A stretch of 64,000 nt of DNA from Planctomycetaceae bacterium (GTDB lineage Bacteria > Planctomycetota > Planctomycetia > Planctomycetales > Planctomycetaceae). The translations under genes and the position numbers were made by a program. The stretch is from assembly GCA_015485495.1 (NCBI GenBank), contig WFTL01000058.1, positions 8,379-72,378 of the forward strand. Reading direction: 5' to 3'. Positions 18,827 to 22,578 of the stretch are shown in pieces. Positions within the stretch are counted from its first letter, which is position 1. Each line of letters begins with the position of its first letter. The notes beneath the pieces are model-generated. The model was not told the DNA's origin. It made no database searches and saw only the letters and a list, made by a program, of their open reading frames with translations.

Positions 18827-19933
18827 TCAGTGTGATGAGGCACGCTCGTCTGTGCGGACCGAATGGACGGGTTTGGCGAAGATCATCCGACCGGCACTGC
18901 TCTGCAGCACACGGGTGACAATGGCTGTCACGTTCCGTCCGATCATGGCAGCGGCGTTCTCACAGACGACCATGGTGCCGTCTTCCAGGTATCCGACGCC
19001 CTGTCCGGGAGCTTCCCCTTCTCGCATGATCTGGATGGTGAGGCGATCGCCGGGAAGAAACTGCGGCCGCAGGGCATTGGCCACATCGTTCAGGTTGATG
19101 ACGACAATGTCCTGAACGCTGGCCACCTTGTTCAGATTGAAATCGTTGGTGATCACACCGGCCCGAAGCTGCTTGGCGACTTCCACCAGTTTCTGGTCAA
19201 CGGACATCGAACGAAACTCTCCCTTTTGAGTTTCGTGAATGCGAATGTCCACATGAGGACACTGCTGCAGCCTGGCAAGAACCTCCAGGCCGCGACGTCC
19301 CCGGGTTCTCCGATTCTTATCGCTGCTGTCAGCAATGTCCTGAATTTCAGCCAGAATGAAGTCCGGCACGATGAGCTGCGATTCGATGATCTGCGTTTCC
19401 ACGACGTCCATGATGCGGCCGTCGATGAGGGAACTGCTGTCCACGACCAGGGGGCGGCCTCCCTTGACATCCTTGACGAATTCCACGAACGGAATCACGA
19501 AACGAAAATCGTCTCGTGTCTGCAGCAGCAGCGACACGCACAGGTACGGCAGCACCAGCAGCAGCAGCAGGAAAATGACACCGCGATAGTTGGACGACGG
19601 CGGAATCACCAGAGTGATGGCCTGGCCGGACAGATAGGCCAGAAGCACGCCGATCAGCAGACCGAAGTAGGTGGCGGAAATCAGATCAATGCGTTTTCGA
19701 CGCACGACCACGTCCAGCACGGTCGCCAGCTGCGTGATTCCCAGCAGGAGGAAAAACGACACCGTGGGGTGGTCCAGAATGAAATCCGGGCGGGTTTCTT
19801 CCCGCGGGTCCTGGCTGCTGATCGTTGCCGGATCGATTCCCTGAAGATCGCCGATTTCAGCCGGGAAGATGTATCCGGCAATCGCACCGGCGCACACCAG
19901 GAAATAGGCCGTTCGCAGAATGATGAGAATCAT
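18827..19933 (-). CDS. PIN/TRAM domain membrane protein (YacL-like)
   Basis: Four N-terminal TM helices are followed by a PIN-like nuclease core (LVVDSSSLIDGRI ... VITNDFNL) and a C-terminal TRAM-like beta domain (GDRLTIQIMREGEAPGQGVGYLEDGTMVVC). It ends 11 nt upstream of the kinase gene. Confidence 0.8.
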   Translation of the reverse strand: MILIILRTAYFLVCAGAIAGYIFPAEIGDLQGIDPATISSQDPREETRPDFILDHPTVSFFLLLGITQLATVLDVVVRRKRIDLISATYFGLLIGVLLAYLSGQAITLVIPPSSNYRGVIFLLLLLVLPYLCVSLLLQTRDDFRFVIPFVEFVKDVKGGRPLVVDSSSLIDGRIMDVVETQIIESQLIVPDFILAEIQDIADSSDKNRRTRGRRGLEVLARLQQCPHVDIRIHETQKGEFRSMSVDQKLVEVAKQLRAGVITNDFNLNKVASVQDIVVINLNDVANALRPQFLPGDRLTIQIMREGEAPGQGVGYLEDGTMVVCENAAAMIGRNVTAIVTRVLQSSAGRMIFAKPVHSVRTDERASSH

Positions 19934-20109
19934 GGGTGGCTGCCGAAGGACGCTGAGACGAACTGCCGCGAAGAACCGGGTGAATTCTTACAGAATCCGG
20001 GCAGATGGCAACCACGGAATGTCCTGTTTCGCCGTTTGCGAAGACCAATCCGGCAGGCAGAACATCCGTTCATCGTCCGGCCGGGGAAGCAGTGCCCGAG
20101 AAACAAAAA

Positions 20110-20152
20110 AGAACGGTGACAGGCGGCCAGGAAGGGACCGTGTCACCGTTCT
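20110..20152 (-). terminator. Rho-independent terminator (minus strand)
   Basis: A perfect 12-bp stem, agaacggtgaca (20110-20121) / tgtcaccgttct (20141-20152), has a 19-nt loop. On the minus strand it is followed by TTTTTTGTTTC (20109-20099). This is the best intrinsic terminator in the window. Confidence 0.65.
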
Positions 20153-20443
20153 CATTGTTCTTGACCAACAGTTCCACCCATGCTGATCACCGGTGGAACT
20201 CAGGCAGACATCAGGTCTGCCGGTGTGTTCCCCCGCGAGGATTCCTCACGTTCCTCACCAGCGTCTGGGCGGCAGGTCAGGTCGGACCGGAACCGTCCGT
20301 TCGGTCAGATCGCTTCATCAGTGTGTTTCCTCGCACCTGAAAACATCGACTGACAGCCGGTCAGAGCGGATTCACGACAATCTGCTCTGTCATCTGACCG
20401 ACGGCCGCAATTCGGATCGTTGCCGACCGTTCGCCGCATTCAC
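20153..20443 (-). ncRNA. structured 3' UTR of the Cys-rich gene, or an independent small RNA candidate
   Basis: This 290-nt stretch between the stop codon (20444) and the terminator has no ORF of 60 aa or more on the minus strand. It contains further perfect hairpins at 20170-20200 (9 bp) and 20203-20221 (7 bp). Confidence 0.25.
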
Positions 20444-21019
20444 TTAGTTGCAGGGAGCACAGCAGCTCGGAGCAACAGGAGCACAGCAGGTCGGTTCTTC
20501 GCAGCAGGCATTTGCCGGAGCACAGCAGCTCGGTTCTTCACAGCAGGCATTCGCCGGAGCACAGCAGGTCGGTTCAGAAGAACAGCCGTGTCCGCAGCCA
20601 TGACGCTTGCTGAACAGTTTCGGCAGGCGCAGCTTCGGCATTTTGAAGTGAGAAAACAGTCCGCACTTCTTCTTCGTATGGCAGCAGCCTTCACCGCAGG
20701 CGTTCACCGGTTCGCAACAGGCAGCCGGTGCACTGCAGGCCGGCTCGCAGCAGGCAGCGGCCGGAGCACAGCAGGTCGGTTCGCTGCAGGCTTCGGCCGG
20801 AGCACAGCAGGTCGGCTCTTCGCAGCAGGCATCTGCCGGAGCACAGCAGGTCGGCTCTTCGCAGCAGGCATCCGCCGGAGCACAGCAGGTCGGCTCGCAG
20901 CAGTCGTTGCCGCAGCCATGTCCGCAGCCATCATGTTCGAACAGGCCGAACAGGCCGGCGTTGGCGCTGCCGGAGATGGTCATCACCATCATGGCAGCAG
21001 ACAGAAAGATCCCTTTCAT
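20444..21019 (-). CDS. secreted cysteine-rich tandem-repeat protein (CC-x-x-P-x-CC-A-P repeats; keratin-associated-protein / metallothionein-like composition)
   Basis: The ATG at 21019 is preceded by aggaga (ttaggagaagtgaaacaATG). A signal peptide is present (MKGIFLSAAMMVMTISGSANA). I count 41 Cys in 191 aa. There are two modules, each with GLF..H-GCGHGC followed by 11-13-aa CCEEPTCCAPA-type repeats. A terminator lies downstream on the same strand. Confidence 0.7.
   Translation of the reverse strand: MKGIFLSAAMMVMTISGSANAGLFGLFEHDGCGHGCGNDCCEPTCCAPADACCEEPTCCAPADACCEEPTCCAPAEACSEPTCCAPAAACCEPACSAPAACCEPVNACGEGCCHTKKKCGLFSHFKMPKLRLPKLFSKRHGCGHGCSSEPTCCAPANACCEEPSCCAPANACCEEPTCCAPVAPSCCAPCN
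20450..20578 (-). repeat. in-frame tandem repeat (about 39-bp units) encoding the C-terminal CCEEP[ST]CCAPANA repeats
   Basis: aa 148-190 of the Cys-rich protein; near-identical 13-aa units are visible at both DNA and protein level. Confidence 0.8.
20705..20902 (-). repeat. in-frame tandem repeat (33-39-bp units) encoding the N-terminal CCE(E)PTCCAPA[DEA]A repeats
   Basis: aa 40-105 of the Cys-rich protein; about five consecutive units. Confidence 0.8.
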
Positions 21020-21194
21020 TGTTTCACTTCTCCTAACGAGCTGAAAGGACATGAGGATCAGGGCCGCAGATGTCATTCTGAACTCATCACCTCGAAACTG
21101 GGTAACACCGGTGCTTGTTTTCGGATCCGCCCGATTTCCCGATGCACTCAAAAGGCAGTGTTTGCCGGTGTGCTGCCGGACTGGATGCGACTGT

Positions 21195-21212
21195 ATCGAT
21201 TGCATCGATTGT
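21195..21212. promoter_or_regulatory. direct repeat of a ClaI-type palindrome (atcgattgc atcgattgt) in a divergent promoter region
   Basis: Two 9-bp units sit about 180-190 nt from both divergent start codons (Cys-rich gene at 21019, DHQS-like gene at 21403). Confidence 0.2.
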
Positions 21213-21402
21213 CCGGCCGACAGACCGAACCCCGGAACGAGGCCGGGGCCCCGGGGACGGCAGACGAATTCCTGAACACCGTGTCACCGTCGCGGAGCGC
21301 GGAGACGAACTCCGGGCCCGTCGATATGCTGGCGTCGACCGAATCCAGCCTCTATGCTCAGCGTTTTCCCCGTCCTTTGACGCTTCTTTCCGCAACGCTT
21401 CC

Positions 21403-22578
21403 ATGCCCGCCGATCCATCATCTCTGAACGTCCCATTCTCCGTGACGTTCCTGCATCGACTCCGCATGACAAACGATATATTCGGTCGGGATGCCGCCGT
21501 CCTGTCAGATCTCATCGAACCGTCGGAAGGGCGTCGGCCGCGTGTCCAGTTCTGGCTGGACGAACAGGTGGCAACCATGAACCCGCAGCTGCCACAGCGG
21601 ATTCAGGCATTCTGCCGAAAGTCTGCCGGTTGTATGGACAGCAGCACGAAGGTCCAGCTTGTGCCGGGAGGGGAAAGCGTCAAAAACGATGTGCACATCA
21701 TCGAACGGATTCTCAGGTGTTTTCACCACGCGGACCTGGACCGGCGCAGCTACGTCGTGGTGATTGGAGGAGGAGCCGTGCTGGATGCCGTCGGATTCGC
21801 CGCGGCCATCGCTCACCGCGGCATTCGACTCATCCGCATCCCCACGACGACGCTGGCTCAGGCAGATTCCGGCCTGGGCGTCAAGAACAGCATCAACCTG
21901 TTCGACCGGAAAAACTGGGTGGGAACGTTTGCCGTTCCCTGGGGGGTGATCAACGATCGCACCCTGCTGACCACTTTGTCCGACCGTGATTTTCTGTGCG
22001 GCTTTTCCGAAGCGGTCAAAGTGGCGCTGCTGAAGGATGCTGCGTTCTTCCGGCTGATCGCCCGGTCGACCGGCGAGATCTGTCACCGAGGCGATGTCTG
22101 CACATCCATCATCGCCCGGTCGGCCCGCTGGCATCTGAAACACATCACGGAGGGAGGCGATCCGTTCGAGATGCTTGAATCACGTCCGCTCGATTTCGGA
22201 CACTGGTCCGCTCATCGCCTCGAAGCTCTGTCCGGCTTCGAACTCCGCCATGGCGAAGCGGTGGCCACCGGTGTCGCCATCGACACGGTGTATTCGTCAC
22301 TGGTGCACGGGCTTCCCCGGGCCGATGCGGAAGCCGTGATGCGCTGTCTGAGTGAACTGCGGCTGCTGCGCAGTCATACTGCTCTGCAGCAGACCGATGA
22401 TCTTTTCGACGGCCTGGAAGAATTTCGGCAGCATCTGGGAGGACGGCTGACGGTCACCATGCTGCGTGGAATCGGACATCCGATCGATGTCCACGAAATC
22501 GACCACGACCGGATGCGGCAGGCCATCGACCTGGTGGTCGATCGGACGGCCGCCATCCGACAGTCCGACTGCCTGTGA
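21403..22578 (+). CDS. 3-dehydroquinate synthase family protein (AroB-like sugar-phosphate cyclase fold), divergent
   Basis: It carries GGGAVLDAVGFAAA, IPTTTLAQADSGLGVKNSIN, SEAVKV, FGHWSAH and HGEAVA. These correspond to the nucleotide-, phosphate- and metal-binding blocks of DHQS but differ from the canonical DSSVGGKT / GHTFGHA. The start is chosen at MPADPSS. Confidence 0.7.
   Translation: MPADPSSLNVPFSVTFLHRLRMTNDIFGRDAAVLSDLIEPSEGRRPRVQFWLDEQVATMNPQLPQRIQAFCRKSAGCMDSSTKVQLVPGGESVKNDVHIIERILRCFHHADLDRRSYVVVIGGGAVLDAVGFAAAIAHRGIRLIRIPTTTLAQADSGLGVKNSINLFDRKNWVGTFAVPWGVINDRTLLTTLSDRDFLCGFSEAVKVALLKDAAFFRLIARSTGEICHRGDVCTSIIARSARWHLKHITEGGDPFEMLESRPLDFGHWSAHRLEALSGFELRHGEAVATGVAIDTVYSSLVHGLPRADAEAVMRCLSELRLLRSHTALQQTDDLFDGLEEFRQHLGGRLTVTMLRGIGHPIDVHEIDHDRMRQAIDLVVDRTAAIRQSDCL

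Follow-up and report, generated by a model that had tools for sequence, protein, structure and literature searches.

The planctomycete wall, known for forty years to be unusually protein-rich and stabilised by disulfides, has reportedly been described as rich in proline and cystine since the work on its composition by Liesack and colleagues in 1986. In chlamydiae, the small cysteine-rich lipoprotein OmcA stiffens the envelope by disulfides together with a larger cysteine-rich partner, and disulfide cross-linking of a protein matrix is also the function of keratin-associated proteins (KAPs; PF01500, Keratin_B2, and PF13885, Keratin_B2_2). Known metal binders of the oxidising compartment, for their part, use methionine and histidine. 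To our knowledge, the small RNAs that derive from the 3′ ends of transcripts are all far smaller than about 330 nt. The cysteine-rich YTV proteins are the only planctomycete wall proteins identified to date, and cysteine content is taken to set the rigidity of the wall (PMC12673574, PMC8567305, PMC10632474, PMC5287468). Passages in two of these sources link YTV proteins to an SDS-resistant wall and to its rigidity (Hieu 2008; Sagulenko 2017; Mahajan 2020, via PMC12673574 and PMC8567305).

The locus described here lies in a 64,000-nt stretch of DNA from a Planctomycetaceae bacterium, referred to below as the window. Its protein product resembles KAPs in having tandem C-C-x-P-x pentapeptides with P-(S/T)-C-C, a cysteine content within 20 to 35%, no autonomous fold and a polymorphic repeat number. 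With metallothioneins, including bacterial SmtA and BmtA, it shares a high cysteine content, small size and disorder without ligand.

The cysteine-rich gene, its product and its relatives

The elements of the coding region, in coordinates of the window, are as follows.

20444–21019, (−) strand: coding sequence of the 191-aa cysteine-rich protein; stop codon at 20444–20446
21029–21034, (−) strand: Shine-Dalgarno sequence AGGAGA; AGGAG core kept in 33 of 33 loci inspected, 5–9 nt before the ATG
20957–21019, (−) strand: predicted Sec-type signal peptide, aa 1–21, with cleavage after A-N-A (regular-expression scan); the only helix in the AlphaFold2 model
20675–20956, (−) strand: acidic module 1, aa 22–115, with GLFGLF, a GCGHGC box and five to six CCE(E)PTCCAPxxA repeats; 25 Cys, pI 4.05; hypervariable
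20600–20674, (−) strand: basic linker, aa 116–140, KKKCGLFSHFKMPKLRLPKLFSKRH; pI 11.3
20447–20599, (−) strand: acidic module 2, aa 141–191, with a GCGHGC box, three repeats and the conserved C-terminus ...SCCAPCN
20420–21427, (+) strand: opposite-strand ORF of 335 aa, a shadow ORF; in 26 of 37 homologous loci, stops break the corresponding antisense frame

Retranslation and a residue count reproduced the reading frame of an earlier, sequence-only reading of this DNA, with 41 cysteines in 191 residues (21.5%). No other ORF of the window is comparable: the best 60-residue stretch holds 19 cysteines, compared with at most 10 elsewhere, and the background is 1.6% Cys. In each of the 37 homologous loci the frame stays open, and divergence by codon position (0.20/0.11/0.47) is greatest at third positions. 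The Shine-Dalgarno sequence, which the earlier reading had noted, stands 9 nt from the ATG in the window gene and is kept in all 33 loci, and the indel that separates the gene from that of a sister strain (contig L088) measures 42 nt and is in frame. On these grounds, the comparative evidence identifies the ORF as a genuine, conserved planctomycete gene.

The contrary explanation, in which the ORF is no gene but an artefact of the composition of a GC-rich tandem repeat, and either the opposite strand is what is expressed or neither strand is, is hardly credible. It can draw on the low complexity of the repeat and on the long antisense ORF, but it is already contradicted by the conservation data, namely the kept Shine-Dalgarno sequence, the open sense frame, the codon-position constraint and hundreds of homologs that retain the signal peptide, the linker and the C-terminus. 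The sequence-only reading had named expression of the opposite-strand ORF, or a lack of the ORF in relatives, as what would overturn it; the ORF is present in the relatives, and the opposite-strand frame, which is not conserved, was rejected as a gene. Such a shadow frame arises because the reverse complements of TGC, TGT, GCN and CCN codons contain no stops.

The protein carries a signal peptide, as the earlier reading had noted, that is predicted to be of the Sec type: MKGIFLSAAMMVMTISGSANA, directly followed by GLF, has a lysine-containing n-region, a hydrophobic core and an A-x-A site, and the combination of an A-x-A signal peptide with a following GLF recurs in 29 of 31 homologs (regular-expression scan). 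The mature protein of 170 residues (about 17 kDa) contains 24% Cys, 16% Ala, 12% Pro and 9% Glu, and few aromatic residues beyond the GLF motifs. Its repeat blocks are paired pentapeptides, C-C-E-P-T plus C-C-A-P-A, and we counted 16 vicinal CC pairs, 8 CCAP motifs and 7 C(C/S)E(E)P(T/S)CCAP units. The 40 gaps between cysteines comprise CC (16), C-x5-C (10), C-x3-C (6), C-x4-C (5) and a single C-x-x-C, with no C-x-C among them. Tandem Repeats Finder reports a 39-nt (13-aa) period, with 4.6 copies at 20724–20896 and 2.5 copies at 20478–20575.

The two GLF...GCGHGC modules and the basic linker between them are arranged as the earlier reading described; the isoelectric points are 4.05 for the module and 11.3 for the linker. 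At the linker position, homologs carry three to five copies of (F/L)(K/R/H)(M/L)PK, and a C-terminus of the form C-x or C-G-x is present in about 100 of 164 relatives. AlphaFold2, run with a 23-sequence alignment, returned a pLDDT of 47.6 and a pTM of 0.16, and the mature protein is predicted by this model to be without a fold of its own. A sulfatase-type formylglycine motif, C-x-P-x-R, was considered and rejected, as C-A-P-A-x always lacks the arginine.

Homologs numbering 31 plus 346 were gathered, and a profile search returned 319 clusters at 50% identity. A planctomycete-specific family, for which the sequence-only reading had suggested searching, thus exists; as judged from these searches, it is restricted to Planctomycetota and unclassified. 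Hits of a genome scan with a six-sequence query alignment belong, where an order is given, to Planctomycetales or Pirellulales; many loci have no finer label than Planctomycetota, and several are labelled Kuenenia or Chitinophaga. Carriers in culture include Botrimarina mediterranea and Blastopirellula sp. J2-11. Neither Pfam nor NCBIfam has a model for the family, and a PDB-sequence search gave no meaningful family, in agreement with the earlier statement that no characterised family has this architecture; PDB matches to GPR155 and to Fab chains were rejected as compositional noise. A few members are annotated "keratin-like protein", and our literature search found no paper combining this name with planctomycetes.

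The first repeat block is hypervariable among near-identical strains. Contig L088 is near-identical over 1.3 kb, yet lacks one 14-aa repeat, so that repeat number does differ between strains, as had been suspected; all 15 codon differences and the indel fall within aa 43–115. The window allele has three cysteines fewer than the sister strain, and therefore no single cysteine is essential. In some lineages cysteine amounts to only about 14%, CCAP changes to CAAP between lineages, and the histidine of the GCGHGC box is not conserved, relatives reading GCGCS or GCGSSC. Odd cysteine counts are as frequent across the family as even ones (51 versus 56).

Upstream region and structured 3′ RNA

Three conserved blocks precede the gene.

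21188–21211, (−) strand: upstream block 1, two direct repeats spaced by about 10 nt (CAATCGATGCAATCGATACAGTCG), a candidate transcription-factor site; conserved in more than 27 loci
21149–21169, (−) strand: upstream block 2 (ACCGGCAAAC..TGC..TTTG), from upstream alignments
21100–21124, (−) strand: upstream block 3 (CCGAAAACA..GC.GTGTTACCC), the most invariant of the three and a putative core promoter

Three short metagenome contigs from different species (L094, L101 and L123) begin 5–7 nt after block 3, which, if they stem from transcripts, would place the transcript start at about 21093–21095. The 230 nt upstream have no Rfam match and essentially no consensus structure (−0.68 kcal/mol). A riboswitch or leader was rejected for this reason, and the region is therefore read as a promoter with regulator sites plus a 5′ UTR. 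The leader block GUGUUACCC could pair with the block GGGGAACAC of the 3′ RNA, 8 of their 9 positions being complementary; this pairing was set aside, as the alignments contain no compensating changes.

Downstream of the stop codon, alignment and covariation delineate the following elements.

20104–20435, (−) strand: conserved structured RNA directly after the stop codon, a 3′ UTR domain or 3′-derived RNA
20427–20435 paired with 20268–20276, (−) strand: helix H1
20362–20389, (−) strand: hairpin H3, with loop GUCGUGA
20235–20249, (−) strand: H4
20203–20221, (−) strand: variable hairpin
20171–20199, (−) strand: H5
20104–20150, (−) strand: intrinsic terminator (AACGGUGACA...UGUCACCGUU + U6), with which the RNA ends; in this helix 6, 9 of 13 pairs show compensatory changes

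The sequence-only reading had described the gene as monocistronic, with its own terminator near 20350–20364. That placement was mistaken: the candidate there is a weak 5-bp match (3 found versus 1.6 expected by chance) lying inside the structured RNA, and the strong terminator stands about 300 nt beyond the stop codon. The transcript most likely continues through the conserved RNA, which has a size of about 330 nt and six helices, including a long-range closing helix. RNAalifold gave −62.3 kcal/mol for the alignment, with compensatory changes at 26 of 50 pairs; covariation was 0.336, compared with 0.173 in shuffles (0 of 500) and 0.05–0.08 when the alignment was slid, and the MFE z-score was −4.8. 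The segment CCUUCCGCCC could pair in two alternative ways, with GGCGAAAGG or with GGGUGGAA.

Over 19850–20500, Rfam 15 gave nothing above chance at E ≤ 10; the RNA region contains no tRNA or tmRNA, and the Weinberg 2010 motif list holds no matching entry. A covariance model built from the alignment matched once per locus (58 matches in 884 kb). Genuine copies number about 100, and each of those with readable upstream sequence follows the cysteine-rich gene. By covariation, this is a previously undescribed structured RNA motif with no Rfam family. It occurs in the aroB-linked clade of Planctomycetaceae and is absent from Pirellulales relatives, in which a plain terminator follows the gene.

This distribution bears on the idea that the main product of the locus in the aroB-linked clade is the RNA, acting for instance as a regulator after release from the transcript's 3′ end, with the ORF as a secondary passenger or dual-function partner. 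The RNA is indeed more strongly conserved than the protein repeats, covaries strongly and always accompanies the gene. However, the protein family extends far beyond the RNA, the gene of Pirellulales relatives ends in a plain terminator and lacks the RNA, and coding constraint on the ORF is clear, which makes this account quite unlikely. The RNA is a new motif independently of the protein, and for a bacterial RNA so large a place within an mRNA 3′ end is unusual.

Gene neighbourhood, and metal binding or a secreted precursor as unlikely alternatives

The neighbours in the window are aroB, a PIN/TRAM membrane protein, glpK and a histidine kinase/response-regulator pair, none of them serving metal or redox chemistry, as the earlier reading had remarked. 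Across the homologous loci, one clade keeps aroB and PIN/TRAM beside the gene and the other keeps Hpt and DUF1598, and in neither synteny class is a metal or redox enzyme conserved beside the gene. A functional link to the neighbours was rejected: the upstream gene is the housekeeping aroB, and the synteny depends on the order and hence reflects vertical inheritance rather than a pathway.

Such a neighbourhood offers little to a function in metal handling, in which the protein, exported and metallothionein-like, would buffer soft metals (Cu, Zn, Cd, Hg, As) in the periplasm by its thiolates, with CC pairs, Glu and occasional His as ligands. Its composition is suggestive, being 24% cysteine, acidic, poor in aromatics outside GLF and disordered without ligand; the window allele has histidines in its GCGHGC boxes, and a metal-responsive regulator could bind at the conserved repeats upstream. 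Against this, no metallothionein family model in Pfam or NCBIfam matched the window protein or the relatives scanned, and the carriers come from ordinary lakes, rivers and open ocean. The absence of C-x-C and the single C-x-x-C, Sec export into an oxidising compartment, the non-conserved box histidine and the lack, in either synteny class, of a conserved metal pump, chaperone or regulator nearby together make the sequence lean away from a classical metallothionein. We consider a metal buffer unlikely; should the protein be one, it would stand out, as few proteins of the metallothionein type are exported.

A secreted precursor or effector was also weighed, whether a ribosomal peptide precursor cut into cysteine-rich peptides, an adhesive or holdfast component, or a sacrificial redox sink. 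The repetitive core-like units behind a signal peptide, the hypervariable block, which is typical of surface or secreted molecules, and the conserved C-terminal Cys-x end would suit such a role, but no radical-SAM, MNIO/DUF692, protease or transporter gene is conserved in an adjoining position across the homologous loci, no cleavage motif is evident flanking the repeats, and the acidic pI argues against an antimicrobial peptide. Membership in the bufferin/MNIO or ranthipeptide/SCIFF groups likewise finds no adjacent DUF692/MNIO or radical-SAM gene in the window or the homologous loci. We regard this explanation as very unlikely.

A possible envelope cross-linker and its relation to known systems

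The reading that we tentatively favour, while still holding it to be less than probable, is that of a disulfide cross-linker in the periplasm or envelope, which would make the protein a small, cysteine-rich contributor to the disulfide-stabilised protein wall of planctomycetes. Exported by Sec, a small acidic protein with no fold of its own would meet an oxidising periplasm, where its roughly 40 thiols would most likely form disulfides, many of them intermolecular. It may then act as a cross-linker or filler in a protein-rich envelope, jointly with the YTV wall proteins, which are larger and likewise rich in cysteine, in the way that small OmcA acts with large OmcB. The basic GLF/K-x-P-K linker might tether the acidic blocks to an anionic surface (membrane, lipopolysaccharide or peptidoglycan). 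The conserved promoter region and perfect Shine-Dalgarno sequence would fit a strongly expressed gene, and in aroB-linked Planctomycetaceae the 3′ RNA that ends in the terminator could add to expression, for example by stabilising the mRNA. The disulfide state, envelope location, cross-linking and roles of linker and RNA are what we infer here.

Several observations were counted in favour of the cross-linker, namely the export signal, the matrix-like cysteine spacing, the lack of a defined fold and of an enzyme partner, the tolerance of variation in repeat and cysteine number and the distribution (Planctomycetales and Pirellulales labels, the reported class of YTV being Planctomycetia); the odd cysteine counts, as frequent as even ones, fit open-ended cross-linking rather than a closed knot. 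Counted against it were that the family has never been reported in wall preparations, that the hint of transcripts comes from three contig ends, and that some lineages have low cysteine with no single residue essential. An acidic, cysteine-rich, disordered chain equally resembles apo-metallothionein, the tie of the linker to a surface is conjecture, and a structural protein need not bear a large conserved 3′ RNA, which Pirellulales relatives do without.

As to the wall preparations, the protein when cut with trypsin in silico gives only one peptide of a size that can be used, besides two others of 95 aa (25 Cys) and 52 aa (15 Cys). Identification in the published wall proteomics called for two or more tryptic peptides of seven residues or longer, and trypsin-based work could for this reason overlook the protein. 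The cross-linker reading thus also accounts for the oversight by standard proteomics, and makes this widespread family a concrete candidate for a second wall component beside the YTV proteins. In a bolder form, which we consider doubtful, the protein would be a keratin-matrix-like cross-linker of the cystine- and proline-rich, SDS-insoluble wall that YTV explains in part, hidden from trypsin proteomics and, in Planctomycetaceae, governed by a new class of large structured 3′ RNA.

Set beside the KAPs, the protein has the tandem C-C-x-P-x / C-C-x-(S/T)-x pattern with more than 15% Cys (CCEPT plus CCAPA, 16 CC pairs, 24% Cys when mature). The window protein has no match to the Keratin_B2 or Keratin_B2_2 HMMs even at E ≤ 10, and the 23-member alignment has three weak Keratin_B2_2 matches (best E 0.007) and one to Keratin_B2, all below the cut-off. 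The likeness to KAPs that the first reading saw is therefore real at the level of motifs, as the weak matches and the "keratin-like protein" labels also indicate. In contrast to KAPs, the protein is bacterial, Sec-exported and acidic rather than basic or neutral, with GLF motifs and a KxPK linker, and the resemblance is convergent, not homologous. From metallothioneins it differs in being exported rather than cytosolic, in its richness in proline and in its C-x-C and C-x-x-C counts.

With the YTV proteins it shares restriction to Planctomycetia, cysteine richness and export, whereas it is much smaller, repeat-only, unstructured and never detected in wall proteomes; neither the window protein nor any of the 23 + 9 relatives scanned has a YTV domain (Pfam). 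The 3′ RNA is placed like CpxQ from enterobacterial cpxP, a conserved RNA that follows the stop codon of a gene for an envelope protein and precedes the terminator, but differs from RNAs of the CpxQ type in its size, its six helices with long-range closure and its lack of an Rfam family. Relative to chlamydial OmcA/OmcB, the repeat grammar is different, the window protein has no Pfam match to either family, and an OmcA-type lipobox is absent (cleavage after A-N-A and before G, with no Cys at +1). The parallel with OmcA/OmcB lies in the common PVC superphylum and in the pairing of a small, very cysteine-rich envelope protein with a larger cysteine-rich partner.

Gene and protein layout

The ORF at 20444-21019 on the minus strand carries 41 Cys per 191 residues, and on re-reading, its translation agreed exactly with that of the sequence-only reading. 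Following a 21-residue signal peptide, the mature chain of 170 aa consists of 24% Cys, 16% Ala, 12% Pro, and 9% Glu; vicinal Cys residues form 16 CC pairs in the protein, the unit C(C/S)E(E)P(T/S)CCAP occurs seven times, and both repeat blocks have a 39-nt period (Tandem Repeats Finder). Its richest 60-aa stretch has 19 Cys, compared with at most 10 anywhere else in the 64-kb window, where background Cys in long open frames is 1.6%. The only structure predicted by AlphaFold2 is the signal-peptide helix (pLDDT 47.6, pTM 0.16). The mature chain is laid out as follows:

aa 22-115: acidic block 1, 25 Cys, pI 4.05
aa 116-140: basic linker, 9 Lys/Arg, pI 11.3
aa 141-191: acidic block 2, 15 Cys

Judged from sequence conservation, this ORF is a real gene on the minus strand. 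A Shine-Dalgarno AGGAG core lies 5-9 nt 5' of the ATG in 33 loci (AGGAGA in the window), the sense frame is open in 37 of the 37 loci examined, and pairwise divergence at codon positions 1, 2, and 3 is 0.20, 0.11, and 0.47 (first 27 codons, 28 loci). The 335-aa ORF on the opposite strand (20420-21427) was rejected as a gene: its antisense frame is broken in most of the 37 loci, and it is thus a shadow of Cys/Ala/Pro codons. Gene-calling programs commonly start the true ORF too far upstream (253 aa in the window, 20444-21205 on the minus strand; 239 aa in the relative P0001); the promoter/leader DNA there is conserved and stop-free in frame. Public calls for relatives P0001, P0005, P0007, P0008, and P0010, and the window's 20444-21205 frame, begin 60-120 codons ahead of the true start.

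Family, synteny, and strain-level variation

A single-sequence search returned 31 relatives and a profile of more distant Pirellulales-type members returned 346; when a profile was run exhaustively against 1.8 billion cluster representatives, 319 matched at E<=1e-3, 84 at E<=1e-10, and 9 at E<=1e-30, and every match is a small protein. Relatives share a Sec-type signal peptide ending in A-x-A, followed immediately by GLF, Cys-rich EP(T/S)CCAP repeats, a basic stretch in which (F/L)K(M/L)PK often recurs 3-5 times, and a second repeat block. The C-terminus is Cys-x or Cys-Gly-x in about 100 of 164 relatives (...CCAPCN, ...CGGCN, ...CGCGH; window 20447-20452, minus strand). The family is outside every known family: neither Pfam nor NCBIfam has one that covers the protein, and no relative was found among solved structures. 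Scanning 23 members gave three sub-threshold matches to Keratin_B2_2 and one to Keratin_B2, with none to YTV proteins (the Cys-rich wall proteins of planctomycetes), metallothioneins, or chlamydial Omc proteins. Two relatives from cultured strains, Botrimarina mediterranea and Pseudobythopirellula maris, are annotated as "keratin-like protein."

With one genome scanned for each GTDB species, 89 species proved to have a relative, the best species-representative match being a Fuerstiella sp. MAG at 63% identity. The 80 loci listed belong to Planctomycetaceae, Fuerstiella, Planctomyces, Pirellulales, and unclassified Planctomycetota, plus a few MAGs labeled Kuenenia or Chitinophaga. MAG loci so labeled with a Planctomycetaceae-type gene are L039, L040, L042, L045, L047, L056, L060, L072, L074, L076, and L077. 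Most of the loci under these two labels also have an aroB or PIN/TRAM neighbor and the linked RNA described below; because they share the same synteny, the labels are probably wrong.

In the window clade, the gene is flanked on one side by divergent aroB, a housekeeping gene (NF004852, 483 bits), and often on the other by a PIN/TRAM membrane protein gene (aroB upstream in 58 loci, PIN/TRAM downstream in 27). In Pirellulales, its neighbors are instead an Hpt gene and, on the other side, a DUF1598 gene, which could be a partner or reflect synteny only. At the Pirellulales loci L005, L006, L066, L067, and L075, the divergent Hpt gene is 5' and the gene for a DUF1598 protein of ~570 aa is always 3', past the gene's own terminator. 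Neither synteny class has a conserved neighboring oxidoreductase, metal transporter, metallochaperone, radical-SAM enzyme, or MNIO enzyme.

The window was also compared with L088, a 1290-nt contig of assembly GCA_026998815.1, which is identical over 285 nt upstream, the signal peptide, the linker, and module 2, and nearly identical downstream of the gene. The differences are concentrated in the first repeat block, aa 43-115 (20675-20893, minus strand): a 42-nt in-frame deletion, which removes a single 14-aa repeat, and changes at 15 codons (8 synonymous, 7 non-synonymous). At three of these codons, L088 has Cys and the window Ser or Ala. The expectation that repeat number would vary between strains is thus borne out. 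As the synonymous changes are clustered, the pattern points to the swap of a divergent repeat segment, with the appearance of a recombination hotspot, rather than to point mutation alone; possibly, it is an artefact of MAG assembly.

Conserved upstream DNA and a linked 3' RNA

Sequence blocks are conserved across about 230 nt 5' of the ATG, a region in which no consensus RNA structure was found:

21188-21211, minus strand: upstream conserved block
21149-21169, minus strand: upstream conserved block
21100-21124, minus strand: upstream conserved block

The DNA at 21100-21211 (minus strand) contains direct repeats spaced by 10 nt and an invariant CCGAAAACA..GTGTTACCC block. These blocks are probably regulator sites together with a promoter unlike that of sigma-70. 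Three short metagenome contigs from different species (L094, L101, and L123) have 5' ends 5-7 nt past the GTGTTACCC block, and these ends may be transcript 5' ends. If so, they would mark the start site, equivalent to ~21093-21095 in the window (near 21094), and the gene would be expressed in nature. A further metagenome "contig," L155, carries an Illumina adapter at both ends and is therefore an untrimmed library fragment, not an assembly.

Directly after the stop codon, the DNA of the aroB-linked clade is conserved over ~330 nt (20104-20435 in the window, minus strand). RNAalifold folds this region at -62.3 kcal/mol, and 26 of the 50 pairs show compensatory changes. The structure has the following elements:

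long-range helix, GGCGnAAGG with CCUUCCGCC, enclosing the 5' domain
hairpin inside the 5' domain, fully covarying, with a conserved GUCGUGA loop
GUGAG/CUCAC hairpin
conserved single strand, GGGGAACACGC
variable hairpin, covarying
invariant hairpin, GUUCCACC/GGGUGGAAC, with loop GAUCAGCA
20104-20150, minus strand: terminator with a U-run, covarying

In this structure, 95% of cells pair (86% in shuffles) and double-sided changes occur in 133 cells (42 in shuffles); the covariation score is 0.336 versus 0.173 in shuffles, none of 500 reaching 0.336, and falls to 0.05-0.08 with slid partners. For the window copy, the folding z-score is -4.8. Neither Rfam 15 nor ARAGORN gave a match to this RNA, and its standing as a separate new motif, independent of how the protein is read, is well supported. 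A terminator previously placed near 20350-20364 proves to be a weak match within the conserved RNA, the true terminator being at 20104-20150. Transcription of the unit most likely starts in the conserved promoter region and ends at 20104.

Searched with a covariance model of the 3' domain, 884 kb of sequence contained 58 copies, one per locus and always on the gene strand (20171-20276 in the window). A pattern scan of metagenomes added 42 genuine copies. Each of the 41 with enough upstream sequence is preceded by a Cys-rich ORF, the stop codon of which falls 172-191 nt upstream of the CCGCCC block; the remaining 38 pattern matches were chance hits without any other feature of the RNA. Altogether, there are ~100 genuine copies, and all with readable upstream sequence follow this gene. 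In Pirellulales relatives, this RNA is absent, and the stop codon is followed 60-110 nt later by a plain terminator.

Two partners are available to the invariant strand CCUUCCGCCC: GGCGAAAGG, giving the long-range helix, and GGGUGGAA, whose other partner is GUUCCACC (sites at 20171-20276 and 20427-20435, minus strand). Two mutually exclusive folds, and hence a switch, are possible from these complementarities; all four strands are invariant.

A possible role in the cell envelope

Export through Sec is shown at the level of sequence. In a Gram-negative periplasm, the thiols would be expected to oxidize, and intermolecular disulfides could then knit the protein into the envelope. Among mature family members, odd Cys counts (51) are as common as even ones (56), a pattern that speaks against a closed knot of intramolecular disulfides and is consistent with open-ended cross-linking; it would also be expected of a metal binder. 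The Cys spacings are CC, C-x3-C, C-x4-C, and C-x5-C, with a single C-x-x-C and no C-x-C, unlike those of metallothioneins. We regard a periplasmic or envelope disulfide cross-linker as a tentative reading, somewhat short of an even chance, and a metallothionein-like metal binder as unlikely, with remaining readings less probable still. The interpretation first proposed is partly supported: of its two candidate roles, a disulfide protein of the cell envelope is favored over metal sequestration.

Original chemical analyses reportedly found planctomycete sacculi to be rich in proline and cystine, which would match the composition of this protein. The wall proteins found so far in planctomycetes are the Cys-rich YTV proteins, whose cysteine content is thought to set wall rigidity (PMC12673574, PMC8567305, PMC10632474, PMC5287468). 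Published wall proteomics required two tryptic peptides, each of at least 7 residues; a computed digest of our protein gives Cys-laden peptides of 95 and 52 aa and a single peptide of measurable size, so it would have escaped detection.

Hair matrix proteins are built from C-C-x-P-x pentapeptides, and the Cys spacing described here resembles theirs. By analogy, the family's mode of working would be most like that of keratin-associated proteins (KAPs) and chlamydial OmcA: a small KAP-like cross-linker beside large YTV proteins, if such it is, would parallel the pairing of OmcA with OmcB in the chlamydial envelope.
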